Shown: piece after piece, positions 2,003 to 22,477 of the stretch
Layout of the letters: every line of letters begins with the position of its first letter
Numbering within the stretch: the first letter of the stretch is position 1
Assembly: GCF_056712565.1 (NCBI RefSeq)
Contig: NZ_CM160072.1
DNA: 64,000 nucleotides
Direction: 5' to 3' (one strand)
Position numbers and translations under genes: made by a program
The notes under the pieces: model-generated
Database searches by the model: none
Seen by the model: the letters and a program-made list of their open reading frames with translations, nothing else
What the model was told of the DNA's origin: nothing

Positions 2003-2872
2003 ATGAGCACTTTTAAACCACTAAAAACACTCACTTCGCGCCGCCAGGTGCTGAAAGCCGGTTTGGCTGCCCTGACGTTGTCAGGAATGTCGCAAGCCAT
2101 CGCCAAAGAAGAACCGTTAAAAACCAGTAACGGACACAGCAAGCCGAAAGCAAAAAAAAGCGGCGGCAGACGTGTCGTTGTTCTCGATCCAGGCCACGGC
2201 GGGATTGATACCGGAGCGATCGGACGCAACGGTTCGAAAGAAAAACATGTGGTGCTGGCAATTGCCAAGAATGTCCGTTCCATATTGCGTAATCATGGCA
2301 TTGATGCGCGTTTAACGCGTTCTGGCGATACGTTTATCCCACTGTACGATCGCGTTGAAATCGCCCATAAACACGGCGCAGACCTGTTTATGTCAATTCA
2401 CGCCGACGGTTTTACCAACCCGAAAGCTGCCGGTGCTTCGGTATTTGCCCTCTCTAACCGTGGGGCAAGTAGCGCAATGGCGAAATACCTGTCTGAACGC
2501 GAAAACCGCGCCGATGAAGTTGCCGGTAAAAAAGCGACTGACAAGGATCACCTATTGCAGCAAGTGCTGTTTGATCTGGTGCAAACCGATACTATTAAAA
2601 ACAGCCTGACGCTCGGCTCGCATATTCTGAAAAAGATTAAGCCGGTGCATAAACTGCACAGCCGCAATACCGAACAAGCCGCGTTTGTGGTGTTGAAATC
2701 GCCGTCGGTTCCGTCGGTGCTGGTGGAAACCTCGTTTATCACCAACCCGGAAGAAGAGCGGCTGTTAGGCACTGCAGCGTTTCGCCAGAAAATCGCCACA
2801 GCGATTGCCGAAGGCGTGATCAGTTATTTCCACTGGTTTGACAACCAGAAAGCACACTCGAGAAAGCGGTAA
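2003..2872 (+). CDS. amiA: N-acetylmuramoyl-L-alanine amidase AmiA (Tat signal)
   Basis: 289-aa ORF with 'SRRQVLKAGLAAL' Tat-type signal and amidase_3 features; synteny. Confidence 0.95.
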   Translation: MSTFKPLKTLTSRRQVLKAGLAALTLSGMSQAIAKEEPLKTSNGHSKPKAKKSGGRRVVVLDPGHGGIDTGAIGRNGSKEKHVVLAIAKNVRSILRNHGIDARLTRSGDTFIPLYDRVEIAHKHGADLFMSIHADGFTNPKAAGASVFALSNRGASSAMAKYLSERENRADEVAGKKATDKDHLLQQVLFDLVQTDTIKNSLTLGSHILKKIKPVHKLHSRNTEQAAFVVLKSPSVPSVLVETSFITNPEEERLLGTAAFRQKIATAIAEGVISYFHWFDNQKAHSRKR

Positions 2873-3775
<903 letters not shown>

Positions 3776-3780
3776 CTCCC

Positions 3781-4833
3781 TCACCCCCACTCTCGCATCC
3801 GCTGATGCAGCGTCAGTGACGGCTTCTCGGCAAACAGTTGCTGATAATCCGTGGCAAATTGCCCAAGATGCCAGAATCCCCACTGCATGGCGGCGTCTTT
3901 TACCGTTGTGCTTTGTGACCACGGACTTATGAGTTCGCGGCGCACGGCGTTCAGGCGAATACGTTTCAGCCACGCGTTCGGACCAATGCCCAAAATGGCG
4001 TGAAACGCGTTTTGTAGCGTGCGGCGGCTGACATGCAGTTGATTACACAAGTCCAGCACCGTCACCGGTTCGGACATGTTTTCCAGCACATATTCACGGG
4101 CGCGGGAAAGCAATCGACGGTAACTCTGATGACTGATGCTTTCCGCCGTCACCATTGGCTGCGCTTCTTCCAGCATCGCCCCCATCGCCATTAGCAAATT
4201 ATCCCCCAGCACTTTTCGCACTGCAGGCTGATGGAGATTTTCCGGGTTTTCGCAAAACGTCGCCAGCGCCTGTTGGACAAAGCCCCACAGAGCGGCTTTA
4301 TGCTGCTCTTTCACTTCCAGCGCCGACTGGCTACGCAGCATATGTAATACCCGATCCGGATTATGCAAAAAGTTAGCCTGACGAGTGATGACATCTTCAG
4401 AAAGCACTACGCCAAGGATCGTGTAATCGTCCGGCGTACTTAATTCAAACTCGGTTCCACCAGGGCGCGTCGCAATTTCTGCGCTTCCCAGACATTGCGA
4501 ACCGATAAATCCCTGCTCACCGCGCGTCGCCGGAATGCCAAACCAGAACGAGTTCGGCCAGACCAGGCACGACTGACGCAGCGCCAGACCAGTGTATTCA
4601 CGAAAAACCTGAATATCATCGAGTAGAATTTCCGTAAATTCACCATGAAACTTGCCCGGATGCAGTTGATCGTAAATCTGCTGCCAGGCGGTAATTGTCA
4701 AAGCATGTTCATAGACGTCCGTTGTCTGTCGTTGATGAACATTATCCACTTCGACCTTCGGCGTGAGCTTCAGGTTTTCGGGTAAGGGTTCATGATAAAG
4801 ATGGTGCAAATTGGCTGTACGGGTCTTTTTCAT
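3781..4833 (-). CDS. eutR: AraC-family transcriptional activator of the eut operon, EutR
   Basis: 350-aa ORF '[23 protein letters not shown]...' matches recalled EutR; last gene of eut cluster. Confidence 0.95.
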
Positions 4834-4878: not shown

Positions 4879-5379
4879 TTAATGGGGCTTGAGACGGTAA
4901 CGACTACTGCGTTTACGTAACGTCCCGGCAGAAAAGAGCTGTTCGAGCGCATTTCTGGCTTTTTCCAGCGGCCAGCCAAAGTGGGCAGCCACTTCTCCTG
5001 CCGTCATTCCCTGACGTACTGATGTTAACAGCGCCAACAACTCGTCAGCAGATTCCGCGACGATAACTGGCGCGTCGGGTTCCTTTACGGGTTGCTTCGG
5101 CTGGCGGTTAAAGCCAGTAACCAGCCACTGGGTGTCATCGTCTGGCCGACCGATCTCCTTACGGCTGATGACACGCCCGGTACGCATCGCGGCAGCACAA
5201 CCTGCGTCCAGCGCCGCACGACACGCCGCCAGATCGCCTTCCACCACCAGCGTTAGGCGACCAGGGTCAAGCACTTCGTGACTGAGCAGACGAACGTTAG
5301 CTGCTTTGAGCATGGCATCAGCTGCATCTATCGCGGCGACCATGCCGTCCACTTCCAGCAATCCCAGTGCATTGATCAT
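4879..5379 (-). CDS. eutK: Bacterial microcompartment shell protein EutK
   Basis: ORF 4879..5385; recalled EutK starts 'MINALGLLEVDG' (166 aa); BMC domain plus C-terminal helix-turn-helix-like tail. Confidence 0.9.
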   Translation of the reverse strand: MINALGLLEVDGMVAAIDAADAMLKAANVRLLSHEVLDPGRLTLVVEGDLAACRAALDAGCAAAMRTGRVISRKEIGRPDDDTQWLVTGFNRQPKQPVKEPDAPVIVAESADELLALLTSVRQGMTAGEVAAHFGWPLEKARNALEQLFSAGTLRKRSSRYRLKPH

Positions 5380-5391
5380 CGGCAACCTCCG

Positions 5392-6051
5392 TTACGCACG
5401 CTGGATTGGATTACGCGCGATTTCCAGCACTGCATCGGTAAAGGCGTTACAGGCTGCTTTACACGCGGCCTGGCTACCGGTTAAAAATGCTGCCGAGTAG
5501 TTGGTTTCAGACGGTGGCGGGACATAGGTCACCAACTGCACGTCGGCAGATTTCAACGCTGCATCAATGCCGTAGGTCGCTTCCAGCGGCGGTGCCACCA
5601 GATACGCCATCGGATCGCCAAGCGTGATCCCGGCGGTTGATGAGAGATAAGAACCGGTACGCGAAACTACATGTGCCAGGAAGGCTGTGTTTTCTGCGTC
5701 GTTTGCCCACTGGAAAGCAGCGCCATTTTCAATATTCGCAACCATCGCATCCAGACCAGCACGCACTTCCGCCGGGTTTGGTCCACCAAGCATAATCAGC
5801 ACCTCACCGGCAGTCGGTGACGGGCCGTGTGCAGCGCCCGCATACAGCGAGCGACCATATACCACTTCGACCATCGCCTGCTTGGTCGCTTCGTCAGCCG
5901 CAATGTAGGTGACGTCATCTGAATCAGCAGAAATCAGCCCGAGGCTACGAATATGCGGCGGCAATTTCAGTTCACGTGCAAATTCGGCGTTAACGGAGGC
6001 AATCACCCGCATGGCGGTTACCGACGGTCGAATCAAATCTAAAGCTGGCAT
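5392..6051 (-). CDS. eutL: Microcompartment shell protein EutL
   Basis: 219-aa ORF matches recalled EutL. Confidence 0.95.
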
Positions 6052-6060
6052 GATGCCTCC

Positions 6061-6948
6061 TTATCGGGTCATGTTGATGCCGGATGCTTTCTGCTCCAGC
6101 ATACGTTTCGCCAAATCCACAATGACGGCTGCGGCTTCAACCGGCGGCGTGCCGCCCTGGTGAATATTAGATATACAGGTGCGATCGGCCTCAACGGTGG
6201 TCGCCATACGCGGCGAGTAAACGGCGTAGCAGGAGAGGCTTTCTGACTGCCCCAACCCCGGACGTTCGCCCACCAGCAGGATCACTACTTTCGCGCCTAG
6301 GATCTCACCGATCTGATCTTCAATCTTCACGCGACCATAACGTACAAAGAATGGCGTACCGACTTTCAGCCCGGCTTGCTTCAGGCCCGCCATCAGCGGC
6401 GGCAGGATCTCTTCGTAGTTCACGGTGATCGCATCAGTTGACAGGCCATCAGAAATAACGACCTGCACGTCCGGATTAGCAACACACTGTGCTTTCAGCG
6501 CTTCAACAGCTTCTGCACACAGGCGGCGGCCCATATCCGGACGAGTCAGGTAGAGATTTTTGTCGCTGATTTCGGAGCGGACTTCCAGCAAGCCCTGCGC
6601 TTTCACCCACTCTTCCGGTACTTCTTTCAGAACGGTATCTTTCGAACGAGAGTGATCGGCCAGGAAACGCAGCAACGCCTGGGTGCGCGGACGCGGACCG
6701 GCACGACCGGTACAAACGCGGGCCACGGTGCTGCGACGCAGTTCTGTTAATACGTCTGCGCGATGCGGGTTTTCAACACCAATCCACGCTTTTGCTTCCG
6801 CAGAACCTAAATCCAGCGCGCAGCTTTCCGAGGTCACCGGTGCCGCACAGTTGGTGGTGGCGCACTTTGCTTCTGACGGCGCGGGGGCCGCTTGTCCCAT
6901 TGACGCCATCACGCTGCGTACAATTTCTTCAATCTGTTTTTGATCCAT
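6061..6948 (-). CDS. eutC: Ethanolamine ammonia-lyase small subunit EutC
   Basis: 295-aa ORF matches recalled EutC. Confidence 0.95.
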
Positions 6949-6968: not shown

Positions 6969-8330
6969 TCAGAAGAACAGTGACGGATCGCCCGCCCGTT
7001 TGGTCAGGCGACCGTTTGCCATAATGCCCATGCTTTCCAGCCAGCGTTCAAACTCCGGTGACGGGCGCAGGTTGAGTAACTGACGCACAGTGGCTGTGTC
7101 GTGGAATGCGGTGGTCTGATAGTTGAGCATGATGTCATCGCCCAGCGGCATCCCCATGATGTAGTTGCAGCCTGCGGTGGCGAGCAGGATCATCAGGTTT
7201 TCGTTGAGGTTCTGGTCAGCGTCAGCGTGGTTGGTGTAGCAGCAGTCACAGCCCATAGAGATGCCGCTCAGCTTACCCATAAAGTGATCTTCTAAGCCTG
7301 CGCGGATAATCTGGCGGTCGTTGTAGAGATACTCCGGCCCAATAAAACCGACCACGGTGTTGACGATAAACGGATCGTAATGACGCGCCAGCCCATAGTT
7401 ACGCGCTTCCATCGTCACCTGGTCTGCGCCGAAGTTAGCGCCAGCGGATAGCGCCGAGCCTTGTCCGGTTTCGAAGTAGAGACAGTTTTCCCCGGCGATA
7501 CGGTTGAACTCCGCGCCCACTGCGCGTGCTTCAGCGAGCATCGCCAGCTCTACGCCAAACTCTTTCAGCCCTTTTTCGCTGCCGCAGATACTCTGGAAAA
7601 TCAGCCCGCCTGGTGCGCCACGACGGATCGCTTCGATCTGGGTGGTGACGTGCGCCAGTACGCAGCCCTGAGTTGGGATGTTGAATTTGTCGATCACGCC
7701 ATAGATGGTATCCAACACGCGGCTTAAGTTTTCCACGTCGTCAGTCACCGGGTTAACGCCGATCACCGCATCGCCCACCCCGAAGGAAAGCCCTTCGTAG
7801 ATTTGCGCGGCGATACTTTGCACGTCGTCACGGGTATCATTCGGCTGCAAACGGGCGCTAAAGGTGCCCGGAATACCAATGGTGGTATTGGCCTTTTTGA
7901 TCACCGGCATTTTCTTCGCGCCGTAGATCAGGTCCGCGTTGGAGCAAATCTTCGCTACCGCCGCCACCACTTCCGAGGTCAGCCCTTTGCGGGTAAAGGC
8001 AATGTCGTCCACGCTGGTTTCATCGCTCAGCACATACTCACGCAGTTCGCTGATGCTCCAGTTTTTAATCTGGTTGTAGGCCGTTTCGTTAACGTCGTCC
8101 TGAATCAGCCGCGTCACGCAGTCATCTTCATAGGCAATCACCGGATTATTGCGGATGTCCGCTACGGTCATTTCCGACAACACCTGCTTTGCCGCCACGC
8201 GCTCCTGTGAGCTTGCCGCAGCAACGCCCGCCAGCACATCCCCCGAACGCAGTTCGTTGGCTTTAGCCAGCACCTCTTTTACATCCTTAAACTGATATAC
8301 ATTGCCGAACAATGTGGTCTTTAGTTTCAT
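6969..8330 (-). CDS. eutB: Ethanolamine ammonia-lyase large subunit EutB
   Basis: 453-aa ORF 'MKLKTTLFGNVYQFKDVKEVL...' matches recalled EutB. Confidence 0.97.
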   Translation of the reverse strand: MKLKTTLFGNVYQFKDVKEVLAKANELRSGDVLAGVAAASSQERVAAKQVLSEMTVADIRNNPVIAYEDDCVTRLIQDDVNETAYNQIKNWSISELREYVLSDETSVDDIAFTRKGLTSEVVAAVAKICSNADLIYGAKKMPVIKKANTTIGIPGTFSARLQPNDTRDDVQSIAAQIYEGLSFGVGDAVIGVNPVTDDVENLSRVLDTIYGVIDKFNIPTQGCVLAHVTTQIEAIRRGAPGGLIFQSICGSEKGLKEFGVELAMLAEARAVGAEFNRIAGENCLYFETGQGSALSAGANFGADQVTMEARNYGLARHYDPFIVNTVVGFIGPEYLYNDRQIIRAGLEDHFMGKLSGISMGCDCCYTNHADADQNLNENLMILLATAGCNYIMGMPLGDDIMLNYQTTAFHDTATVRQLLNLRPSPEFERWLESMGIMANGRLTKRAGDPSLFF

Positions 8331-8341
8331 AAGTCGTTCCC

Positions 8342-9745
8342 TCAGGAAGGAAATGCGAGTGATTTCACCGTCACCGGCACAACCGATCCGCCAAAAAGAG
8401 GCGTACCAATGTCGATATAGTCCCCCGCGCGGACAATCACTTCGTCAATGACTGCCAACGGGAGTTGTTGTAGCTGTGGGCGCAACAACATGCCCAGAGC
8501 TTTACCAAAGTCCTGCCCGGCCACCACCAGCAGGGGATGCGGATTCGGAAAACGCGCGACGAAATCGACCAGCGCGTTGATGACCGTCAGTACCGCGGCG
8601 TAACGCACAGGCAGCGAGGCGGGAAGCGCCAGCACATACGCGTCAGTTTTGGGGCAAAGATCCAGTTGAATCAGCGCCTGTTGCCAGGCACTGACCAGAT
8701 CCGTTTCATCAATCGGGATCGCCACCGGCAAATTGCGCAGCGGCAGTTGTACGCCCTCCAGCCAGATTGTGCTGCCAGAGAGCGAAAGGGTATGAGCACC
8801 CGCGCCAATCACCGTGGCGCGCACGGTTTGCGCCGGAAACTGCACGTTCATCTCACGCAGACGCGGATGGTCATGCAGCGCCGTTGCCAGAAGCGGGCCT
8901 ATATCGGCAAAACAGAACGGGTCGGCGGGCTGGTGGCGATAACATTCGCCCACGCCGCCAGAAAGCGTAATGATTTCGGGCGTAACACCTGCGGGCAGCA
9001 AACCGGTTTGCATCAATGCCTGCGCGAGCGGCGAGAGCGTTCCGTCAATCACTTCGACAATCAGCTCTGCCATCCGGCGAGTAACCTGCACCAGCTGCGC
9101 GCCGGTCAGCGAACGGGCGTCAGTACCGGCACCGAAGCACTCATCCACAATCATCTGCCCCGGTTTATGAGCGTAAACCACGCGCCCCTGGCTGTCGGTT
9201 TCCAGCAGGCGACCGCCGACGTTGAGGCAGGCAGTGCCGCTGATTTTTCCGGCATCGAACAGGGCGTAGTTCGCGGTGCCACCCCCGATATCGATATTCA
9301 GGACCCGACACAGCCGTTGTTCAGAAAGGGTTTGCGCCCCGGCACCGTGTCCGGCGATCACGGATTCAAGATGCGGCCCGGCGCTGGCGACGACAAAATC
9401 GCCCAGCGACCGGGAGAGCGCCATCACCGCCGGGCGAGCGTTGCGGGTTTTTGCGCTTTCACCGGTGATAATGATGGCACCAGAATCAACGCTTTCCGGC
9501 GCAATGCCCGCAGCCTGATATTGCTCGAGGATTAAGGTTTTCAGTTCCGCTTCTTTTAAACCACCCTGTTTATCGACAGGGGTAAAAAACACCGGGCTTT
9601 GCCAGCTAATTTCGCGTTTGATGAATTCGTAGCGCGGCACCTGCGACACCGCCGCACGGTTAACCAGCTCCAGGTGGGAGAAGATCACCTGGGTGGTGGT
9701 GGTGCCGATATCGATACCGACGCTCAGTAGCTGGCGAGTGTTCAC
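8342..9745 (-). CDS. eutA: Ethanolamine ammonia-lyase reactivase EutA
   Basis: 467-aa ORF matches recalled EutA; lies 11 bp from eutB. Confidence 0.95.
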   Translation of the reverse strand: MNTRQLLSVGIDIGTTTTQVIFSHLELVNRAAVSQVPRYEFIKREISWQSPVFFTPVDKQGGLKEAELKTLILEQYQAAGIAPESVDSGAIIITGESAKTRNARPAVMALSRSLGDFVVASAGPHLESVIAGHGAGAQTLSEQRLCRVLNIDIGGGTANYALFDAGKISGTACLNVGGRLLETDSQGRVVYAHKPGQMIVDECFGAGTDARSLTGAQLVQVTRRMAELIVEVIDGTLSPLAQALMQTGLLPAGVTPEIITLSGGVGECYRHQPADPFCFADIGPLLATALHDHPRLREMNVQFPAQTVRATVIGAGAHTLSLSGSTIWLEGVQLPLRNLPVAIPIDETDLVSAWQQALIQLDLCPKTDAYVLALPASLPVRYAAVLTVINALVDFVARFPNPHPLLVVAGQDFGKALGMLLRPQLQQLPLAVIDEVIVRAGDYIDIGTPLFGGSVVPVTVKSLAFPS

Positions 9746-10968
9746 GATTGCGCCTCCGCTTCAGTTTTAGCCGCGGTCGCGTCTTCTTTTGGCACCAGCA
9801 TCATCGCCACGCCAATTGCCGTTACGCCGCCGATCAATTTGCCGACAATCATCGGGAAGATCATGGCGTTCATGTTGGCAGCGGCGAAGCCTAAATGGTC
9901 GCCCAGGGCGAAAGCAGCGGAAACGGCGAAGGCGCAGTTGATGACTTTGCCGCGGGTATCCATCTGCTTCATCATGCCAAACATCGGAATGTTGTTGGCA
10001 AGCGTTGCCACCATGCCGGCTGCCGCGATATTGTTCATATTCAGCACGTTACCGACACTCATCAGCGGTTTTTCAAACCAGCGAGTCAGCAGCAGTACCA
10101 TCGGATACGCCCCTAACAGAACGCAGGAGATCGAGCCGATAACTTCAATGGCGCGCATCACTTCACCGGGTTTATCGCCAGGGGCCATAAAGATAGGATC
10201 AAGACCCGGGATCAGTTCCCAGCCAAGGAGGAATTTCACTACCGCAGCGGCAAGACCGAGGGTGATCAATGCAACGAGGAATTTGGCGAAGATCTGGAAG
10301 CCGTTGATCATTTTTTCCGGGATGAATTTCAGTCCCAGCGCCACCAGCACCGCAACGATAAGTACCGGGATCATGTTCATCAGGATCAGCGCAAAGGTGA
10401 ATTCAACAGGCTGGCCGTTGATCTGCACACCGGAGTACATCGCTACCAGACCACCAGCGATACAGCCAATCGGAATGGTCACTATGCCCGCCAGCACGCC
10501 GAGCGCCAGATAACGACGGTCAGAAGGTTCGATAATGCCGAGCGCCACTGGAATGGAAAACACAATCGTTGGCCCCATCATCGACCCGAGAATTAACCCA
10601 GAGTATAGCCACGCTGCTACGTCACCGCCCGCCAGCTCTTTGGCGAGGAAGAAGCCGCCCATATCGCACGCCAGCAGTGTTCCGGCGAACATTGACGGGT
10701 TTGCGCCGAGCATTTCGTAAACCGGGATAATCACCGGTCCGAGAACGTGGGCCAGTACCGGTGCCAGTGCGGTCATACCGACCATCGCCAGGCCCAGAGC
10801 GCCCATTGCCATAAAGCCTTCTTCGAACTGACCGCCGGATCCTTCGATACTTTTACCGAACTTACCGAGGAAACGAGCAGAACCGCCGAACTGCGACAGG
10901 ATCCTGTCTACGGCAGCTATCAGCATAAAGAACATCATGATGTACATGATGATTTCGTTAATTCCCAT
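9742..10968 (-). CDS. eutH: Ethanolamine permease EutH
   Basis: 408-aa polytopic membrane ORF matches recalled EutH; 4-nt overlap with eutA. Confidence 0.95.
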   Translation of the reverse strand: MGINEIIMYIMMFFMLIAAVDRILSQFGGSARFLGKFGKSIEGSGGQFEEGFMAMGALGLAMVGMTALAPVLAHVLGPVIIPVYEMLGANPSMFAGTLLACDMGGFFLAKELAGGDVAAWLYSGLILGSMMGPTIVFSIPVALGIIEPSDRRYLALGVLAGIVTIPIGCIAGGLVAMYSGVQINGQPVEFTFALILMNMIPVLIVAVLVALGLKFIPEKMINGFQIFAKFLVALITLGLAAAVVKFLLGWELIPGLDPIFMAPGDKPGEVMRAIEVIGSISCVLLGAYPMVLLLTRWFEKPLMSVGNVLNMNNIAAAGMVATLANNIPMFGMMKQMDTRGKVINCAFAVSAAFALGDHLGFAAANMNAMIFPMIVGKLIGGVTAIGVAMMLVPKEDATAAKTEAEAQS

Positions 10969-10998
10969 CGCCTTTACTCCCTGTTAGTTGTTATTTAT

Positions 10999-11184
<186 letters not shown>

Positions 11185-12372
11185 TTATTGCGCCGCTGCG
11201 TACAGGCCGACAATCTGCTCCAGGCTGGCGGTACGCGGGTTACTGCGCAGACAAATATCTTCCAGCGCGGCCTGCGCCCATGCGCCGTAATGCGCAGATG
11301 TCGCACCAACATCGCCCAGTCGTTTACCAATCCCAACTTCAGCAATCAGCTCACTTACCGCGTTAATAGCGTCACGATCGTCGGATTTTTTAGTTCGCAG
11401 CGCCCGACCAATCTGACTAAACCGATCACGACAAACCATCCGGTTAAATTCCATCACCGTTGGCAACAACATGGCGTTCGCCAGACCGTGCGGAATATGC
11501 AGCGCCGCCCCTGGCTGATGCGCCATCGCGTGGCATAACCCAAGCCCGGCGCTGGAAAACGCCATTCCCGCCATACATGAAGCCAGCAACATGCTCTCGC
11601 GCGCGGCAAGGTCATGGCCGTAGCCCACCGCTTTCGGCAGTGATTTGCCAATCATCGCAATGGCACCAATCGCCAGGCTGTCGGTAAACGGTGTAGCGTT
11701 CAGCGCGCTGTACGCTTCAATGGCATGGGTTAACGCATCAATGCCAGTCATCGCCGTGACATGCGACGGCACGCCTTCGGTCAGCGCAGCGTCGAGAATC
11801 GCCACATCCGGCATCAGCGAGGCATGGGCTAACACCTGTTTGCGCCCGCTTACCGCATCGATAATCACCGTCACGTTAGTCGTTTCAGAGCCGGTTCCGG
11901 CGGTCGTTGGAATGGCAATCAACGGCAGGCGCGGTTGCAGGACGCTGGTTTCTGACATTTCTGCCAGCGTGCTATCGGGGTTCGTCACCAGCAACGCAAC
12001 GGCTTTCGCCGCATCCAGCACCGAGCCGCCGCCAAACGCGATCACCCCGTCACAACCTGATTCACGCAACTGCGCCACGGCTGCACACACGTCGGTGATG
12101 CACGGTTCGCCCACCGGACATGGCCAGAGCGTCATGGCGATACCTTTAACGGCCAGGCTACGTGTCAGCCCGGCGGTCATCCCTGCCTGATGCAAAAAGC
12201 TGTCTGCCATCACGAACAGATGTTTCAACCCACGCGTTTGCGCTTGCTGCCCGCAACTGCTCACCGCGCCCGGACCGCAAAGCGTCACCGGTGGAACGCT
12301 AAATGTTTTTACCCGTTGCAGATTCAGGGTATCGAACGCCTGAAAAAGCGCCGTTTGCAATTCACTTTGCAT
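11185..12372 (-). CDS. eutG: Iron-containing alcohol dehydrogenase EutG
   Basis: ORF 11185..12399; recalled EutG starts 'MQNELQTALFQAF' (here MQSELQ..), 395 aa. Confidence 0.9.
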   Translation of the reverse strand: MQSELQTALFQAFDTLNLQRVKTFSVPPVTLCGPGAVSSCGQQAQTRGLKHLFVMADSFLHQAGMTAGLTRSLAVKGIAMTLWPCPVGEPCITDVCAAVAQLRESGCDGVIAFGGGSVLDAAKAVALLVTNPDSTLAEMSETSVLQPRLPLIAIPTTAGTGSETTNVTVIIDAVSGRKQVLAHASLMPDVAILDAALTEGVPSHVTAMTGIDALTHAIEAYSALNATPFTDSLAIGAIAMIGKSLPKAVGYGHDLAARESMLLASCMAGMAFSSAGLGLCHAMAHQPGAALHIPHGLANAMLLPTVMEFNRMVCRDRFSQIGRALRTKKSDDRDAINAVSELIAEVGIGKRLGDVGATSAHYGAWAQAALEDICLRSNPRTASLEQIVGLYAAAQ

Positions 12373-13198
12373 AGATCCCCTCCGCTTTCTCTCGCCCACT
12401 ACTGGCGATTGCCAGCGGGGTCATAAACAAACTGTGCTGCGGTAAATGCACCTGTAACGCCGGAAATTGTTTGCAAAACAGCGCAGCTACGCCCGGTTGC
12501 ATACAGGAACCGCCCGCCAGCCATAAATCCGTAATGCCCTGCCCTTCAATATGCCGGGCCACAATGTCCGCCATTTTTTCGTACACCGGTTTCACCGCGG
12601 GCCAAATCTCGTCACCGTGACCGCGTTTGTACTGCTCTGCCTCTTCCAGCGAAATACGGCGATTTCCGGCGAGAGTCAGAGAGATGTGATGTCCGCCGGT
12701 GGCTTCATCCGCCGAGTACGTCACCTTGCCCTTTTTCACGATGGCAATACCAGTAGTGCCACCGCCGATATCCACTACACCGGCGTTGTCCAGTTGCAGC
12801 AGATCCGCGACTGCGGTTGGCTCATCCAGCACATGGCTCACTTCCAGTCCAGCAGACTCCAGCACGTTGATGGAAATACGCGGGTCCGTACCAGGAGGAA
12901 ATGAGGTCGCCGCATGGCTAAAACGGCGACCGAATTGCTGCTCAAGGGTGTCGAGATGGCGACGAACAATGGTGACCGCACCGAAGAAATCCCAGACGAT
13001 GCCGTCGCGGACCACATCGGCCCAGTCGAGGCATACCGCCACCGGCTGACCGTCGCGGTCGACAACCATCGACACCACATCGCAAGTGCCCAGATCCACC
13101 CCCAGCCACAGCGGAGATTCCGTCGCGGCAGGCGTCTGGTTACACAGCGTTGCCGCCGTTTGCAGACGTGGGGTGAGCCATTGTTCATCGTGCGCCAT
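12362..13198 (-). CDS. eutJ: Chaperonin-like (Hsp70/actin fold) protein EutJ
   Basis: 278-aa ORF matches recalled EutJ. Confidence 0.95.
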   Translation of the reverse strand: MAHDEQWLTPRLQTAATLCNQTPAATESPLWLGVDLGTCDVVSMVVDRDGQPVAVCLDWADVVRDGIVWDFFGAVTIVRRHLDTLEQQFGRRFSHAATSFPPGTDPRISINVLESAGLEVSHVLDEPTAVADLLQLDNAGVVDIGGGTTGIAIVKKGKVTYSADEATGGHHISLTLAGNRRISLEEAEQYKRGHGDEIWPAVKPVYEKMADIVARHIEGQGITDLWLAGGSCMQPGVAALFCKQFPALQVHLPQHSLFMTPLAIASSGREKAEGIYAK

Positions 13199-13208
13199 CG
13201 GTTACTCC

Positions 13209-14612
13209 TTAAACAATGCGAAACGCATCGACTAATACACAGCGACGCAGACGGACAAACGTCCGCGCGCTGGTTACCCCTTCACCGGTTGGCGTGGTGA
13301 TGGTCATCGTGGTCCAGCCTTCCCCGCCCAGCCCCAGCCCGGCAATACACGGTCCGTTCTTAACGAAAATGCTGGTATCAATGGCGTTCGCCATCTGGTT
13401 CATGTTTTCGATATTGCGCGAGTGCATTGCCGCCGTGTGGTGGCAACCGCCTTCCAGTTTCACCGCCAGCGCAATGGCATCCGCCACGTTGGCGACGCGC
13501 ACGACGGGCAGCACCGGCATCATCAGTTCGGTCACGGCAAACGGATGTTCTGCGGTGGTTTCTACAAACAGCAGTCGCGTTTGTTCCGGAACTTTAAGGC
13601 CGATTGCCGCCGCGATTTTCGCCGCATCGCGACCAACCCAGTCACGGCTGACGGTGCCTTTTCCGCGCTCGTCGATATTTTTCAGCAACACCGGTTGCAG
13701 TTGCTGCGCCTGCTCTGCGGTCAGTTTCACCGCATGCTGGCCTTCCATCAGACGCATCAGTTCATCGGCTACGCTATCAACAACAATCAGTACCTTTTCG
13801 TCGGCACAAATGATGTTGTTATCGAAAGACGCGCCTTTGACGATGGACTGAGCAGCACGGGCGAGGTCGGCGGTTTCATCCACCACTACCGGCGGGTTGC
13901 CAGCGCCTGCGGCAATCAGACGTTTATTGGTGTGTTTGCGCGCCGCTTCCACTACCGCTTCGCCGCCGGTCACCACCAGCAGGCCGATACCCGGAAACTT
14001 GAACAAGCGTTGCGCGGTTTCGATATCCGGATTTGCTACGGTAACCAGTAAGTTTTCCGGCCCGCCTGCGGCAACAATCGCCTGGTTGAGCAGCGTGATC
14101 GCCCGCTGGGAGACTTTTTTCGCCGCCGGATGCGGGGCAAAAATGACGCTGTTGCCCGCGGCAATCAGGCTGATGGCGTTGTTAATTACGGTTGCCGCCG
14201 GGTTAGTGGAAGGCGTCACCGAAGCCACCACGCCCCAGGGTGCGTTTTCAATTAGGGTCAGGCCGTTGTCGCCAGTCAGCACTTGCGGAGAGAGGCACTC
14301 AACGCCTGGTGTGCCGCGCGCCTGAGCGACGTTTTTGGCAAATTTATCTTCAACGCGCCCCATGCCGGTTTCACTGACGGCAAGTTCCGCTAAATCTCTG
14401 GCGTGTTTTTCGCCTGCTTCACGAATGGCAGCAATGGCTAACTGGCGCATTGCCACGCTTTTTAACCCTTGCTGGGCGACTTTGGCTGCCGCAACGGCGT
14501 CATCCAGGGACGCGAAAACGCCCATCTCATGAACGGCGGCGGGCGGCGTGTCACTGCTTTGCATTTTCAGCAGTACCGCTTTCACCACCTGTTCAATATC
14601 CTGTTGATTCAT
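13209..14612 (-). CDS. eutE: CoA-acylating acetaldehyde dehydrogenase EutE
   Basis: 467-aa ORF matches recalled EutE. Confidence 0.95.
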   Translation of the reverse strand: MNQQDIEQVVKAVLLKMQSSDTPPAAVHEMGVFASLDDAVAAAKVAQQGLKSVAMRQLAIAAIREAGEKHARDLAELAVSETGMGRVEDKFAKNVAQARGTPGVECLSPQVLTGDNGLTLIENAPWGVVASVTPSTNPAATVINNAISLIAAGNSVIFAPHPAAKKVSQRAITLLNQAIVAAGGPENLLVTVANPDIETAQRLFKFPGIGLLVVTGGEAVVEAARKHTNKRLIAAGAGNPPVVVDETADLARAAQSIVKGASFDNNIICADEKVLIVVDSVADELMRLMEGQHAVKLTAEQAQQLQPVLLKNIDERGKGTVSRDWVGRDAAKIAAAIGLKVPEQTRLLFVETTAEHPFAVTELMMPVLPVVRVANVADAIALAVKLEGGCHHTAAMHSRNIENMNQMANAIDTSIFVKNGPCIAGLGLGGEGWTTMTITTPTGEGVTSARTFVRLRRCVLVDAFRIV

Positions 14613-14623
14613 GATGTTCTGCC

Positions 14624-14911
14624 TTATTTGTGGAAAATGACCTGACCGCCAGACACCACCTCATCGACGATGCCAATCACGCACAGATCGACCGGTGACG
14701 TTTCGCTTTTATGCGCCTGGCGGGCGGAACTGCCACTCACCAGTAACACCCACTCCCCGGTTCCCGCGCCAATATTGTCGATGGCGACGGCGCATTGCCC
14801 GTCAGGATTACCTTGTGGATCAATCATTTCCACCATCAGCAATTTGTCATGCGCCAGTCCGTGATGGCGTACGGTACAAACAATTTGTCCAGTGACGACT
14901 GCCAGTTTCAT
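14624..14911 (-). CDS. eutN: Microcompartment vertex protein EutN
   Basis: 95-aa ORF 'MKLAVVTGQIVCTVRHHGL..' matches recalled EutN. Confidence 0.95.
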   Translation of the reverse strand: MKLAVVTGQIVCTVRHHGLAHDKLLMVEMIDPQGNPDGQCAVAIDNIGAGTGEWVLLVSGSSARQAHKSETSPVDLCVIGIVDEVVSGGQVIFHK

Positions 14912-15017
14912 ACCCGCCTCCGTGGCGTATTTCAGGTAAAAGCTCCCCCTACCCTCCGCAGAAGGTAAAATGAAAAAGGAGAGAGCGTGACGCCCGAATC
15001 GACGTCACACAGGGTGA

Positions 15018-15311
15018 TTACAGGTTGCTGCTATCGCCTTTCAGGCCGATCGGGAAGACTTCTTCCAGGTCGCCGTGCGGACGCGGGATAACGTGTACAG
15101 ATACCAGCTCGCCGATACGCTGTGCCGCTGCGGCACCTGCATCGGTCGCGGCTTTACAGGCTGCAACATCACCACGAACCATGGCAGTACACAGGCCGCC
15201 GCCAATCTGCTTAACACCAACCAGCTTGACGCGCGCAGCTTTAACCATCGCGTCAGAAGCCTCTATCAGTGCAACCAGGCCCCGGGTTTCGATCATTCCT
15301 AATGCTTCCAT
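15018..15311 (-). CDS. eutM: Microcompartment shell protein EutM
   Basis: ORF 15018..15353; trimmed to '[13 protein letters not shown]..' (97 aa) as in recalled EutM. Confidence 0.9.
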
Positions 15312-15349
15312 TGTGCTTTCCTCTTTATCAGGGTCCAGAACGGGACCGT

Positions 15350-16366
15350 TCATTCAACCAGTGTTTGTAAACTGCTTTCGCGGTTCACTTCTGTCTGACG
15401 CGGCACAGCTGCCACCAGCGCCAGTTCGATAATTTCCTGCACGCTACAACCACGAGAGAGATCGTGCATCGGCGCGGCAAGTCCTTGTATCAATGGCCCG
15501 ACGGCACGATATCCGCCAAGTCGTTGTGCGATTTTGTAGCCAATATTTCCGGCTTCCAGCGACGGAAAAACCATCACATTAGCTTTGCCCTGTAACGGGC
15601 TGGCAGGCGCTTTTTGCGCCGCCACTTCCGGCACGAAGGCGGCGTCAAACTGCAACTCGCCATCGACAACCAGCTTTGGTGCGCGCTCACGGACGATTTC
15701 TGTCGCCTGCTGGACGTTGGCAACGCAGGGGTGACGGGCACTACCGTTACTGGAAAACGACAGCATCGCCACGCGCGGTTCTTCTCCGGTGATGGCGCGC
15801 CAGGTTTCGGCGCTGGCAAGCGCGATATCCGCCAGTTGTGCCGCCGTCGGCTGCGGCACCACGCTGCAATCGGCAAAGCCCAACGCCGGACCGCTGTACT
15901 GTGGCAGCATCAGGAAAATGGATGAGAGCGTTTTACAGCCTGGCTGCAAGCCGATAATGCGTAATCCGGCACGCAGCACATTCGCCGTGGAAGAGAGGTT
16001 GCCCGCGATACAGACATCCGCTTTACCGGCGCTGACCATTGCGGCGGCGAACATCAGCGGATCGGTAAGTTTTTCCAGCGCATCCGGCGGCGTTTTTTCG
16101 CCCGCGCGGGCCAGCCAGCGATGAGCAAATTCTTCCCGCATTGCGAGGTTGCCATGCGGATCTATCACCTGTAGCCCGTCCATCGCCACGCCGTGACTGA
16201 GCGCAAACTGACGAAGTTCAAACGGATTGGCGACCAGAATGGGCGTTGCCAGACCTTGTTGATGTAAATATTGCGCAGCTTTCAGCACACGTTGATCTAA
16301 CGCATCCGGAAAAACTACTCTGGCGGGCGCTCGCAACGCCAGTTCACGACAACGTTTAATAATCAT
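15350..16366 (-). CDS. eutD: Phosphotransacetylase EutD
   Basis: 338-aa ORF matches recalled EutD. Confidence 0.95.
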
Positions 16367-17166
16367 TGCGTTTCCCCCAGTCGTTGTTGGATCTGCTTCA
16401 CCGTTAGCGGCTGCTTCGTTACGCTCAGGATCATCATCACGTAGACCGTGCTGGAAAGGCGGTTCAGCGCCTGCAAAATGTCCGGGCGTAATACTTCAAA
16501 GCTGCGGGTGATAAAGACCTGCGCCGCTACGGTTTCGGTTTCCCGCACTTTGGTGCGTAGCAGATTCAGCAACGCCGCATCGCGCCCGTGGCTGGCTTCC
16601 GGCACCAGATGATCGTGGTCGAGATAACGCAGCGGCTGGTGAGAAAGCCGATGCAGATCTTCGTCAGAAAGCCCGACAATCGCCTGGCAGGCCAGCGGTT
16701 CCCCCAGCGCATCGGCACGCATAATGTTGCCAAGACGCGAACGGATATCCGCCAGCCACGGCTGCCACGGTTCCGCCAGTTCAATTTGCAGCCACACTGC
16801 CAGCGCAATGGTGCTGTCGAGAACAGCGCGAAAAGCCAGGCGCGGATCGCTTTTGGCGACCATTTTTTCCGCCGACAGGTGAGTCAGCGTATCCGGCTTT
16901 TTTGCTACCGGCTGGCGGCACAGTTCGCAGCACGCCTGCGGATGTTCATCGCTACTGGTCAGCCCGTGAACGGGCTGCGGCTGCTGCTGTTCATCGTCAA
17001 CAAACAGGCGGCCCTGCTCGTCAATAAACTTGATGCGCAGATGGCGGCTTTCCAGTAACTCCCGGGCAGAGGGCGTCAGGCGACTGTCCGCAGGGAGATG
17101 GATCTCTGCGCCTTCGCTGAGCGTATGGTTCGCTCTTAGCCATGCTTCGGTGATGAAATCTTTCAT
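16363..17166 (-). CDS. eutT: Cob(I)alamin adenosyltransferase EutT
   Basis: 267-aa ORF matches recalled EutT; 4-nt overlaps with eutD and eutQ. Confidence 0.95.
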
Positions 17167-17864
17167 AGGGATTGCCAGTTAGCCGGCCAGGCGACATACA
17201 GGAATTTCACGCTGGATGTCGTACCAAATTCGATACTGGAGCCTTTCGGGATAAACATCACATCGCCCGCTTTGGCGATCATAGTTTCGCCTTCGTGGCG
17301 AACATGCAGCTCCCCTTCCAGCACCATGTCGATTTCGTCGTAGTTCAGGGTCCACGGAAAGAAGGCGTTCTCCCACTGCATGAAACCAGCGGCCATACTG
17401 CTGCCGTCGTCTCCGGTCACGAGATCAGTCAAGCCTACGCAGTGCGGTTGTGCGCCGTCGAAACGACCAAACTTGACGCTGCTGCCATCAATAACTTTGA
17501 TGCCGCCTTTGCCGGTCACCGATTTAAAGCTCGGCTGCAGTGCACCCTGTTCCAGCGACTGTTTTTCCTTCATCACTTTTTCCATCAGCTGCGCGACCAG
17601 GCTTTCGGTAAACTGACCTTCCGGCAGTTGGGCGATAATGGTTTCACGGATGCGCTGGCTTTCGGTTTTATCGGCTGATGCGCTGGCGGGAACAGACGCC
17701 GTTACCGGGATCGATTCATCACATTCGGTGATGGTAAAACCCAACAGATCAGCCATTTCACGAGCTTCCGGGGTAATAATGCTGGCGCGCAGAACCACGG
17801 ACATTGCCAGTTCGCCGCGCGCGTGTGCTTCACGAATATCATTCGCTGTGATGAGTTTTTTCAC
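17163..17864 (-). CDS. eutQ: Cupin-fold protein EutQ
   Basis: 233-aa ORF matches recalled EutQ. Confidence 0.95.
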   Translation of the reverse strand: MKKLITANDIREAHARGELAMSVVLRASIITPEAREMADLLGFTITECDESIPVTASVPASASADKTESQRIRETIIAQLPEGQFTESLVAQLMEKVMKEKQSLEQGALQPSFKSVTGKGGIKVIDGSSVKFGRFDGAQPHCVGLTDLVTGDDGSSMAAGFMQWENAFFPWTLNYDEIDMVLEGELHVRHEGETMIAKAGDVMFIPKGSSIEFGTTSSVKFLYVAWPANWQSL

Positions 17865-18318
17865 CTGCTTCCTCCTGTTTGGTGAGAGATGCCAGATAAT
17901 CCACCAGTTGCTGCACGCTTTGCGGGTCGTGGCTGTTTAGCTCGAAAATCGGCTCTTCGAAGCCCGTCTCAAGCAATAACTTTCGCGTTGCGGCGACGTC
18001 AGCATCTGGCATGTCCGTTTTACTGATGACGGCGATTTGCCGTTTGCTGACGCCAATATCCAGCAACCCGGCAGGCAACCGACTTTCCGGGTCATTCGCG
18101 CCGTGGACATAGATCAGCATGTCCACATCCTGTAGCGTGGTAATTAAGGCGTGATACCAGCGGGGATGGCTAAAATATTCACCCGGCGTATCAATATCGC
18201 CATTATCATTAAATTCCACGGCCTGTGTTTTTCTTGCGAGGGTATAATTCCCCTGCAACGCATTAAATAACGTTGTTTTTCCTGCCCCGACGGTACCCAC
18301 AAACGCAATTCGTTTCAT
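17839..18318 (-). CDS. eutP: P-loop NTPase EutP
   Basis: 159-aa ORF with Walker A 'GTVGAGKTT'; matches recalled EutP; 26-nt overlap with eutQ. Confidence 0.95.
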   Translation of the reverse strand: MKRIAFVGTVGAGKTTLFNALQGNYTLARKTQAVEFNDNGDIDTPGEYFSHPRWYHALITTLQDVDMLIYVHGANDPESRLPAGLLDIGVSKRQIAVISKTDMPDADVAATRKLLLETGFEEPIFELNSHDPQSVQQLVDYLASLTKQEEAGEKTHHSE

Positions 18319-18330
18319 GAATGCCCCATA

Positions 18331-18666
18331 TTAACTTTTGGTCATTTCACAAAGCGTATAATTTAATAAGCGTCCTAAACCACTGACGGTTTGTGATAAC
18401 GCTTCTTCTACTGCGCCCACCGAACCATAAATCACCAGCGCGCCGCTAAAACGGTCGAGAAAACCGATATGCACACCGGCGGCTTTCAACGCTAAATCAC
18501 CGGCGATCATCGCCGTTTCTCCGGGAGTTAGCGTCATAATGCCGATTGCGCCCGCATCCGGAACGCCGATTTTCTTCGCCAGTTCCTCGCCGGGATGCGC
18601 GATGAGATGCGCCAGTGTGACCTGTTTACCGGGCACAAATTCCTGAATGATGCGTTCTTTATCCAT
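18331..18666 (-). CDS. eutS: Microcompartment shell protein EutS
   Basis: ORF 18331..18738; trimmed to '[15 protein letters not shown]..' (111 aa) as in recalled EutS; first gene of the eut operon. Confidence 0.9.
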
Positions 18667-18913
18667 GAGTCGCCGCCTGTGAAAAACTTTCGTGTATCGT
18701 GACAATTTTTCGTCAGAGTAAATAACAAAATTCGGCAAGCGCGTTTAAAAGGTGAGGTAGATCACTAAGAATGGAGAGATATTTGCTGTGGTGCATAAAC
18801 TTTCATATGCAACGCATGAATATAAATAAAATAATATCGAGATATTTTATATACTGATTTTTTTATTATTCGCAAACTCAGTAATAAACTTTACTAATAT
18901 ATTGCAGCTAAAC

Positions 18914-18941
18914 CGCTTACCCTGAATATTCAGGGTAAGCG
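18914..18941. terminator. Perfect 11-bp-stem hairpin (CGCTTACCCTG-AATATT-CAGGGTAAGCG) just 3' of maeB; U-tract weak on both strands
   Basis: Inverted repeat read directly; position immediately downstream of the maeB stop. Confidence 0.4.
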
Positions 18942-18958
18942 TGAGAGTTAAAAAAGAA

Positions 18959-21238
18959 TTACAGCGGTTGGGTTTGCGCTTCAACCACGGCCAGCGCCAC
19001 CATGTTGACGATACGACGTACCGATGCGATCGGCGTTAACACGTGAACCGGTTTCGCCACGCCCATCAGCACCGGACCGACAGTCACACCTTCCGAGCTG
19101 GAAACGCGCAGTAAGTTGTAACTAATGCGGGCAGCTTCCATGTTCGGCATCACCAGAATATTAGCGGAACCTTTCAAAGGGCTGTCCGGCATACGGTCGT
19201 TGCGAATCGCTTCCACCAGCGCTGCATCGCCGTGCATTTCACCATCAATCATCAGTTCTGGCGCACGTTCCCTGACCAGTTCCAGCGCCTGACGCATTTT
19301 GCTCGACGACGGGCAGTCAGAAGAACCAAAGTTGGAGTGCGACAACAGAGCCACACGCGGTTCAATACCAAAACGACGAACAGTTTCTGCCGCCATCAAG
19401 GTGATCTCCGCCAGCTCTTCTGCATCAGGCTCATCATTGACGTAGGTATCGGCAATAAAGGTGTTACCACTCGGCAACAGCAGCGCGTTCATTGCACCTG
19501 CGGTGTGAACGCCATCGCGATAACCAAAGACATTTTTCACCACGCTAAAGTGTTCATGATAATCGCCCACCGTACCGCAAATCATTGCATCGGCTTCGCC
19601 ACGCTGAACCATGATCGCGCCGATCACTGTCGGGTTACTGATCAGCGCACGCTGCGCCTGCTCCTGAGTGACACCGCGACGCTTCATGATCTGGAAGTAT
19701 TCGGTCCAGTACTCTTTAAAACGCGGATCGGATTCGTTATTGACGATCTCAAAATCAACGCCCGACTTGATCTGCAAGCCCAGTTTCTGAATGCGCATTT
19801 CGATCACGTTCGGACGACCAATAAGGATCGGTTTCGCCAGTCCCAGCGTTACCAGTTCCTGAGTGGCATGCAGAACGCGCGCCTCTTCCCCTTCCGGCAG
19901 AACTACGCGCTTCGGCGCTTTGCGAGCCTGGGAGAAAATCGGCTTCATAAACAGGTTAGTTTTGTAAACGAACTCTGTCAGCTTGTCGATGTAGACGTCG
20001 AAATCAGCAATCGGACGCGTCGCCACGCCCGACTCCATCGCCGCTTTCGCCACCGCAGGAGCGATCTTAACGATCAAGCGCGGATCAAACGGTTTTGGAA
20101 TGATGTATTCCGGACCAAAGCTCAGATCCTGATCGCCATACGCTGAAGCCACCACTTCACTCTGTTCCGCATGGGCCAGTTCTGCAATCGCGCGTACCGC
20201 CGCCAGTTTCATCTCTTCGTTGATGGCGGTTGCGCCAACGTCCAGCGCGCCACGGAAGATAAACGGGAAGCAAAGGACGTTGTTCACCTGGTTCGGGTAG
20301 TCGGAACGGCCGGTACAGATGATGGCATCCGGACGCACTTCTTTCGCCAGCGGCGGCAGAATTTCCGGTTCCGGGTTCGCCAGCGCCAGGATCATTGGCG
20401 CACGGGCCATTTTCTTCACCATTTCCTGGGTCAGCACTTTCGGGCCGGAACAGCCGAGGAAAATATCCGCGCCTTCAATCACATCATCGAGGGTACGTTT
20501 ACCGTCATCCACCACCGCGTATGCAGCTTTGGTTTCCGCCATGTTTGGCTCACGGCCCTGATAGATAACGCCTTTTGAATCGCAAACCACGATGTTATGT
20601 TTTTGCAGACCCAGCGCTACCAGCAGGTTCATACAGGCGATTGCTGCGGCACCCGCGCCAGAAACCACCATCCGCACGTCGGAGATGTTTTTCTCCACCA
20701 CGCGCAAGCCGTTGAGGATGGCGGCAGTGCTGATAATTGCCGTGCCGTGCTGATCGTCGTGGAATACCGGAATATTCATCCGCTCGCGCAGTTTCTGTTC
20801 AATATAGAAACATTCTGGCGCTTTAATGTCTTCGAGGTTGATGCCGCCGAAGGTCGGTTCGAGCGCAGCGACGACTTCAATAAATTTGTCCGGGTCGAGT
20901 TCATCAACTTCAATGTCAAATACATCAATCCCGGCGAATTTCTTAAACAGAACGCCCTTGCCTTCCATCACCGGTTTGCCTGCCAGCGCGCCAATGTTGC
21001 CTAACCCCAGCACCGCCGTACCGTTAGAGATCACCGCTACCAGGTTACCGCGCGCGGTATATTTGTAGGCTTTTAACGGGTCTTTTTCGATTTCAAGACA
21101 AGGTGCGGCAACGCCTGGTGAGTAGGCCAGCGCCAGATCGCGCTGCGTTGCCAGAGGCTTGGTTGGAGAAACCTGGATTTTCCCTGGAACTGGAAATTCA
21201 TGGAAATCAAGTGCACTTTGTTTTAACTGGTCATCCAT
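18959..21238 (-). CDS. maeB: NADP-dependent malic enzyme MaeB
   Basis: 759-aa ORF (malic enzyme plus C-terminal PTA-like domain) matches recalled MaeB. Confidence 0.97.
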
Positions 21239-21526
21239 TTGGTTGTTCCTTTCACGTAACGTTCACAAATAAAGTGTGTGGGCAACAGCCCCTGTCCACA
21301 ACGTGGCGCACATTATTACCCTGCCGGAGTCTACAGACTTTGAGCAAGTCCAAACTCTCACCATTAATATAATGTTTTGGTAATAATCCTATAACACTGA
21401 TGTTACCTGCTTAATCCAGCAATACCATGCCTGTCTGCTATGCTTTTTTGATGCGTTTAGCGAAATTTCTCAGAAGTGTGAATTAACGCACTCATCTAAC
21501 ACTTTACTTTTCAAGGAGTATTTCCT

Positions 21527-22477
21527 ATGAACGAGTTAGACGGCATCAAACAGTTCACCACTGTCGTGGCAGACAGCGGCGATATTGAGTCCATTCGCCA
21601 TTATCATCCCCAGGATGCCACCACCAATCCTTCGCTGTTACTCAAGGCTGCCGGATTATCACAATATGAGCATTTAATAGACGATGCTATCGCCTGGGGT
21701 AAAAAAAATGGCAAGACCCAGGAACAACAGGTGGTCGCAGCGTGTGACAAACTGGCGGTCAATTTCGGTGCTGAAATTCTCAAAATCGTACCCGGTCGCG
21801 TGTCAACAGAAGTTGATGCACGCCTCTCTTTTGATAAAGAAAAGAGTATTGAGAAGGCGCGCCATCTAGTGGACTTGTATCAGCAACAAGGCGTTGAGAA
21901 ATCGCGCATTCTGATCAAGCTGGCTTCGACCTGGGAAGGAATTCGCGCGGCAGAAGAGCTGGAAAAAGAAGGTATCAACTGCAACCTGACGCTGCTGTTT
22001 TCTTTTGCACAGGCGCGGGCCTGTGCAGAAGCAGGCGTTTTTCTGATTTCGCCGTTTGTCGGGCGTATTTATGACTGGTATCAGGCACGCAAGCCGATGG
22101 ACCCGTATGTGGTGGAAGAAGATCCAGGCGTTAAATCAGTACGCAATATCTACGACTACTATAAGCAACACCACTATGAAACCATTGTGATGGGCGCGAG
22201 CTTCCGTCGCACCGAACAAATCCTCGCCTTAACCGGCTGCGACCGACTGACTATCGCACCGAATTTGCTGAAGGAGCTACAGGAAAAAGTTTCGCCAGTG
22301 GTACGTAAATTAATCCCACCTTCTCAGACGTTCCCACGCCCAGCTCCCGTGAGCGAAGCGGAGTTCCGTTGGGAGCACAATCAGGATGCGATGGCGGTAG
22401 AAAAACTGTCTGAAGGCATTCGTCTGTTCGCCGTTGATCAACGCAAACTGGAAGATCTTCTTGCCGCCAAACTATAA
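21527..22477 (+). CDS. talA: Transaldolase A
   Basis: 316-aa ORF '[23 protein letters not shown]..' matches recalled TalA. Confidence 0.97.

Follow-up and report, generated by a model that had tools for sequence, protein, structure and literature searches.

An uninterrupted eutA-eutB junction with an empty attachment core for CPZ-55-type islands in a complete, apparently functional Escherichia coli eut operon

The closest described systems are the EUT1-type eut operon of Salmonella enterica LT2 and its counterparts in Escherichia coli (Nissle 1917, UPEC and prophage-free K-12), which have the same 17 genes in the same order between maeB and hemF, and the interrupted operon of E. coli K-12 MG1655 and BW25113. 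Other E. coli whose operon is uninterrupted have been found to show induction, microcompartments and growth on ethanolamine (PMC7617246, PMC11334477, PMC6652756). In BW25113 ethanolamine induces eutS and eutR and not eutB, and no microcompartments are formed (PMC7617246); after scarless removal of the prophage this strain grows with ethanolamine as its nitrogen source, as does a W3110 stock with an intact operon (PMC11334477). The insertion site itself is well documented. According to the E. coli W genome paper, the eutA insertion site is filled in Crooks as well as in K-12, and strains W and B have it empty. Conservation of the operon was reported for 47 of 47 UPEC isolates, one of which carries a novel prophage at the eutA/eutB site (PMC6652756). 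The 8-bp target duplication, the prevalence of about 8% (CPZ-55 in 8% of 638 genomes; PMC6379469), the label 'prophage insertion hot spot' given to the site (Dadswell et al.; PMC6652756) and the need of an uninterrupted operon for ethanolamine use are already published, and an empty junction and its interpretation are likewise known.

The annotation of NC_000913.3 places 'cryptic prophage CPZ-55' (2558691-2565480, 6.8 kb) between eutB (b2441) and eutA (b2451) of MG1655, in agreement with the original prediction. The genes of CPZ-55, intZ and yffL to yffS, are oriented opposite to eut, with intZ at 2859-4067 of the extracted MG1655 locus, and CJ236 has a layout equal to that of MG1655 from eutB through CPZ-55 to eutA. 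Reading of the border sequences revealed TCAGGAAG as a direct repeat at both borders of CPZ-55 in K-12.

The window analysed here is the whole stretch of 64,000 nucleotides, and its positions 1-60009 are 99.99% identical to the reverse complement of the chromosome of the E. coli type strain ATCC 11775 (NZ_CP033092.2), from which they differ by three mismatches and a single 4-nt indel. Positions 8320-8359 of the window read TTTAGTTTCA TAAGTCGTTC CCTCAGGAAG GAAATGCGAG. Both genes lie on the minus strand, where eutA ends at 8342 (TGA stop codon, 8342-8344) and eutB starts at 8330 (ATG start codon, 8328-8330). Between them sequence reading found an intergenic spacer of 11 bp, AAGTCGTTCCC, at 8331-8341 (minus strand). 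Read on the minus strand the junction is ...TTC CTT CCT GA GGGAACGACTT ATG AAA..., in which the spacer stands between the eutA stop and the eutB start as TGA-GGGAACGACTT-ATG, and a GAGG Shine-Dalgarno-like motif for eutB spans the eutA stop codon. The letters at 8331-8341 thus bear out the predicted uninterrupted gap of 11 bp.

Comparison of the window with the K-12 borders (and with PMC6379469) identified the core TCAGGAAG, unassigned to a strand, at 8342-8349, where it occurs as a single copy at the junction and includes the eutA stop codon (TCA, the complement of TGA). The duplicated borders in K-12 against the single copy in the window indicate that the insertion took place at a core containing the eutA stop, and positions 8342-8349 are an empty attB for CPZ-55 and IntZ-type islands. 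The same 8-mer occurs at five distant places elsewhere in the window, against about two expected by chance (64 kb, both strands). Blastn found zero matches to CPZ-55 DNA in the window, and tblastn of IntZ against the window found no homologue (best E = 2.7), hence no IntZ-like tyrosine integrase gene beside eutB. A direct duplication of TCAGGAAG bracketing several kb between eutA and eutB was not found, the two genes being 11 bp apart. The window is like MG1655 and BW25113 in its eut genes and their lengths, in the position of TCAGGAAG over the eutA stop and in the spacer before eutB; it differs from them in having one core and no island, whereas those strains have a 6.8 kb island at a duplicated core. 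The CPZ-55 insertion harmed neither gene, eutA encoding 467 aa and eutB 453 aa, and it spared the ribosome-binding region of eutB.

The 17 eut genes extend from 18666 to 3781 on the minus strand in the order eutS-P-Q-T-D-M-N-E-J-G-H-A-B-C-L-K-R, flanked by maeB and hemF, as given by the ORF list, NCBIfam scans and the RefSeq annotation of the 99.99%-identical genome. All are minus-strand genes. The operon begins with eutS (18331-18666; NCBIfam subfamily model), followed by eutP (17839-18318), eutQ (17163-17864) and eutT (16363-17166), each assigned by NCBIfam and annotation, and by eutD (15350-16366), which matched a subfamily model and a generic pta equivalog. NCBIfam equivalogs identified eutM (15018-15311) and eutN (14624-14911), a subfamily model identified eutE (13209-14612), and NCBIfam together with annotation identified eutJ (12362-13198), eutG (11185-12372) and eutH (9742-10968). 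The ethanolamine ammonia-lyase reactivase gene eutA (8342-9745; GTG start, 467 aa) matched NF007991 over model positions 1-467 of 467 with 1074 bits (cut-off 799). Next are eutB (6969-8330), encoding the ethanolamine ammonia-lyase large subunit of 453 aa with one amino-acid difference from K-12 (NF011649, 664.6 bits, cut-off 554), and eutC (6061-6948; NF003971, 339.6 bits, cut-off 230). The operon ends with eutL (5392-6051) and eutK (4879-5379), both found by NCBIfam equivalogs, and with eutR (3781-4833), which encodes an AraC-type activator (NCBIfam and annotation).

Near-whole NCBIfam models were matched above their curated cut-offs by 17 of the 17 products, 14 of them by gene-specific equivalogs and three by subfamily models, the latter being the best models for EutB, EutE and EutS. 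The signature enzyme EutB and EutC and its reactivase EutA are thus all present above cut-off, and five microcompartment shell proteins were found, namely the hexamer-type EutM, EutK and EutS, the pseudohexamer-type EutL and the pentamer (vertex) EutN. When the type-strain gene coordinates were applied, each eut gene was an open frame from its start codon to its stop codon, free of internal stops. The EutS/M/N/L/K shell, EutBC, EutA and a distal AraC-type EutR are common to the window and the EUT1-type operon of S. enterica LT2 and E. coli, and no substantive difference from the latter was observed. By its gene content the window operon is of the EUT1-type microcompartment class.

Comparison with K-12 revealed 476 nucleotide and 50 amino-acid differences over the operon, with 94-99% nucleotide identity per gene and 0-7 amino-acid changes per protein; EutM, EutN and EutC show no amino-acid change, and 17 of 17 products have the length of their MG1655 counterparts. 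The large excess of nucleotide over amino-acid differences fits purifying selection. The original prediction that all 17 eut genes are intact was upheld by the full lengths equal to MG1655, the lack of internal stops and the strong NCBIfam matches. Its range of 4-26 nt for gene overlaps was right and its word 'frequent' slightly generous: overlaps occur at five of the 16 junctions (eutP/Q 26 nt, eutQ/T 4, eutT/D 4, eutJ/G 11 and eutH/A 4), and the other 11 have gaps of 9-216 nt.

Judged by its sequence, the operon looks complete and functional. The reading that we prefer, with a probability of about 0.93, is that the window holds an ancestral, unoccupied EUT1-type eut operon, and that the strain is expected to use ethanolamine with cobalamin. 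As E. coli lacks de novo synthesis of cobalamin, the phenotype needs an external supply, and the window strain would probably be phenotypically Eut+ when supplied with it. It is very unlikely, in our judgement, that the operon is intact in sequence yet non-functional, for example because of faulty regulation or a harmful missense change, which would leave the junction without phenotypic consequence. In principle one of the components could be impaired by its missense changes, which number 0-7 per protein, and both the 50 differences from K-12 and the variation among E. coli strains in ethanolamine use as carbon source (PMC7617246; PMC11334477) speak for such a defect; they are opposed by the full length and strong family-model scores of all genes, by a ratio of nucleotide to amino-acid changes that fits purifying selection and by the identity of EutM, EutN and EutC to those of K-12, whose operon works once uninterrupted (PMC11334477).

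In an ancestral, unoccupied operon the 11-bp spacing of eutA and eutB would allow eutBCLKR to be cotranscribed with the upstream genes from a promoter before eutS. The co-oriented array, the 11-bp spacing and the lack of a terminator-like site at the junction make such cotranscription possible. Scanning for promoters and terminators revealed no promoter-like or terminator-like minus-strand site at or beside the eutA/eutB junction, and the idea of the junction as a regulatory point was accordingly rejected. Operon-wide, three promoter-like sites were found against 8.8 expected from shuffled controls, and 19 terminator-like sites against 17.2 expected, which is no excess. By analogy with Salmonella and from a figure legend in PMC7617246, the main ethanolamine/B12-induced promoter PI, dependent on ethanolamine/cobalamin and EutR, presumably lies in the eutS-maeB intergenic region (18667-18958, minus strand, 292 bp). 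A consensus sigma-70 scan of this gap gave zero matches, as is expected for an activator-dependent promoter.

An island integrated at the core would harm no coding sequence and would keep the eutB ribosome-binding site. It would, however, separate eutA from eutB by 6.8-9 kb of DNA in the opposite orientation, so that eutB and the genes behind it, among them those for the lyase and two shell proteins, would no longer be coupled to induction. With the site empty, Eut microcompartments would be built and ethanolamine would be used, at least as nitrogen source, given cobalamin.

A query of 121 bp centred on the junction found it contiguous in 4962 of 5426 complete E. coli genomes (91.4%). A 2-kb query, which joins pieces up to 1.5 kb apart, found a contiguous junction in 4964 genomes; the 121-bp repeat served as the check for hidden small insertions, and the masking of such insertions in the 2-kb count was rejected on the close agreement of the two counts (4962 vs 4964). 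The uninterrupted junction is thus the majority state and does not distinguish the window strain. Full CPZ-55, defined as at least 80% of the 6.8 kb, was found in 213 of the complete genomes, and most of the records listed among these are laboratory strains of the K-12 lineage. MG1655 and BW25113 are atypical at this site, a reference bias through which K-12-based models underestimate the use of ethanolamine by natural E. coli. An intact operon in the window strain, a B2-like relative of the O1:K1:H7 type strain, is in keeping with the role in fitness that published work gives to ethanolamine catabolism in the gut and the urinary tract.

Another approximately 200 genomes have an intZ-like gene alone, at 80-90% identity. 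Both intZ-like genomes that were viewed (2021CK-01361 and 102651) have a different island at the eutA/eutB site. The island of 2021CK-01361 is about 9 kb long (13009-21972 of the extracted locus), has TCAGGAAG at both ends and carries a truncated intZ-like integrase. The cargo of this second island comprises gadC, murI (glutamate racemase), a frameshifted pyridoxal-dependent decarboxylase, IS3 and IS1. IS903B has rearranged the locus further in strain 102651, where both eutA and eutB are truncated. The IntZ-type islands of 2021CK-01361 and of UPEC U71 (its 'novel prophage') have the same 8-bp core at exactly the same position; their cargo is different, and none of it is present in the window. 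TCAGGAAG is therefore the common attachment site of a family of IntZ-type islands, and its empty state is the rule.

CPZ-55 is missing in some genomes of the K-12 lineage. NEB5-alpha (F'Iq) combines the K-12 EutA and EutB protein alleles with an identical 11-bp junction (4001-4011 of the extracted locus), and a strain named 'K-12' (NZ_CM170063.1) has an empty 11-bp junction with K-12 protein alleles; K-12 alleles together with the empty junction indicate precise loss of CPZ-55 in some K-12-lineage genomes. Loss of CPZ-55 is also reported for ER2796, by precise excision, and for XL1-Blue (PMC4444293; PMC11148124), and one laboratory's W3110 stock has an intact operon with a prophage-free junction (PMC11334477). 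The occurrence of the same uninterrupted junction in K-12, which had been foreseen as a counterexample, hence applies to the derivatives NEB5-alpha, XL1-Blue, ER2796 and one W3110, and not to MG1655, which is interrupted.

It is conceivable that the window junction, too, is a scar, left by precise excision of a CPZ-55-type island carried by an ancestor, so that the operon was restored rather than ancestral. Such excision is real, as the same 11-bp junction without CPZ-55 in NEB5-alpha, ER2796 and XL1-Blue attests (PMC4444293; PMC11148124), and when precise and site-specific it is traceless in sequence. We consider a scar highly improbable, because the empty site in 91.4% of complete E. coli genomes, from varied sources and serotypes, and the identity of at least 99% at the best place of the 121 bp round the junction in 5079 E. 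coli records make an empty ancestral site the most parsimonious assumption; the functional outcome is identical either way. That IntZ-type islands act as a reversible regulatory switch (integration off, precise excision on), with the window strain as the 'on' state of a population-level switch, is compatible with precise excision in K-12 lineages and with several islands of different cargo at one core, and is just as improbable, the window, from which the island is absent, holding no evidence for it.

The domains of IntZ (Arm-DNA-bind_3, Phage_int_M and Phage_integrase) are those of the arm-binding tyrosine integrase set. Its best relative among 50,697 deposited phage genomes belongs to Erwinia phage phiEt88, at 43% amino-acid identity; a phage relative by which CPZ-55 could be classified was sought, and none exceeded this identity to IntZ. 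YffO matches an Sf6-type small-terminase-like domain. There are hints that CPZ-55-type elements may be satellite-like islands rather than decayed full prophages, and a literature search found no report of CPZ-55 as a satellite.

Analysis of the intergenic regions and RNA scans gave further observations on the operon. The gap between eutG and eutH (10969-11184) is unusually long at 216 bp, as it also is in K-12, and consists of two REP/BIME copies; an 85-bp direct repeat within it (10999-11083 and 11099-11183) is 95% identical. The sole Rfam match in the whole window was the REP-derived naRNA4 (RF02564; 75.5 bits, 11049-11130, minus strand) in this gap, and an Rfam regulatory RNA in the operon was rejected on this result. 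A tRNA scan of the window found no tRNA. The gap of 106 nt between eutM and eutN (14912-15017, minus strand) folds at -43 kcal/mol (z = -3.2); within it a GC-rich hairpin of 10 bp precedes a U-run, a combination that resembles a terminator. No discussion of this hairpin was found in the cited eut literature. The gap is 100% identical to K-12, whereas most operon genes are about 94-98% identical. The hairpin could be a partial terminator or an mRNA stabiliser and could help to set the large EutM:EutN ratio, for which proteomics gave 96:1 (PMC11334477).

Single-base differences from ATCC 11775 were found at 16963 (eutT, synonymous) and 31635, and the 4-nt indel lies at about 35834 in a REP-like palindrome, which reads GCCGCATCCGGCC in the type strain and GCCCCGGCC in the window. 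Identity to ATCC 11775 over the whole window was rejected, as beyond 60009 the window enters a prophage that is missing there in the type-strain assembly. The end of this prophage (59995-64000) adjoins the last 15 nt of guaA (TCATTCCCACTCAAT, 59995-60009) and includes a DUF2514/Rz-like gene (60120-60602), a GH19 endolysin gene (about 60820-61446), two holin genes (61436-62135) and, from 62442 onward, the C-terminal portion of a tailspike that is a K1 capsule-specific endosialidase. It is absent at guaA in NZ_CP033092.2, 100% identical in the chicken isolate GPEC1337 and 99.4% identical to the podophage vB_EcoP_ZX5; other K1 strains with the module mostly carry it away from guaA.
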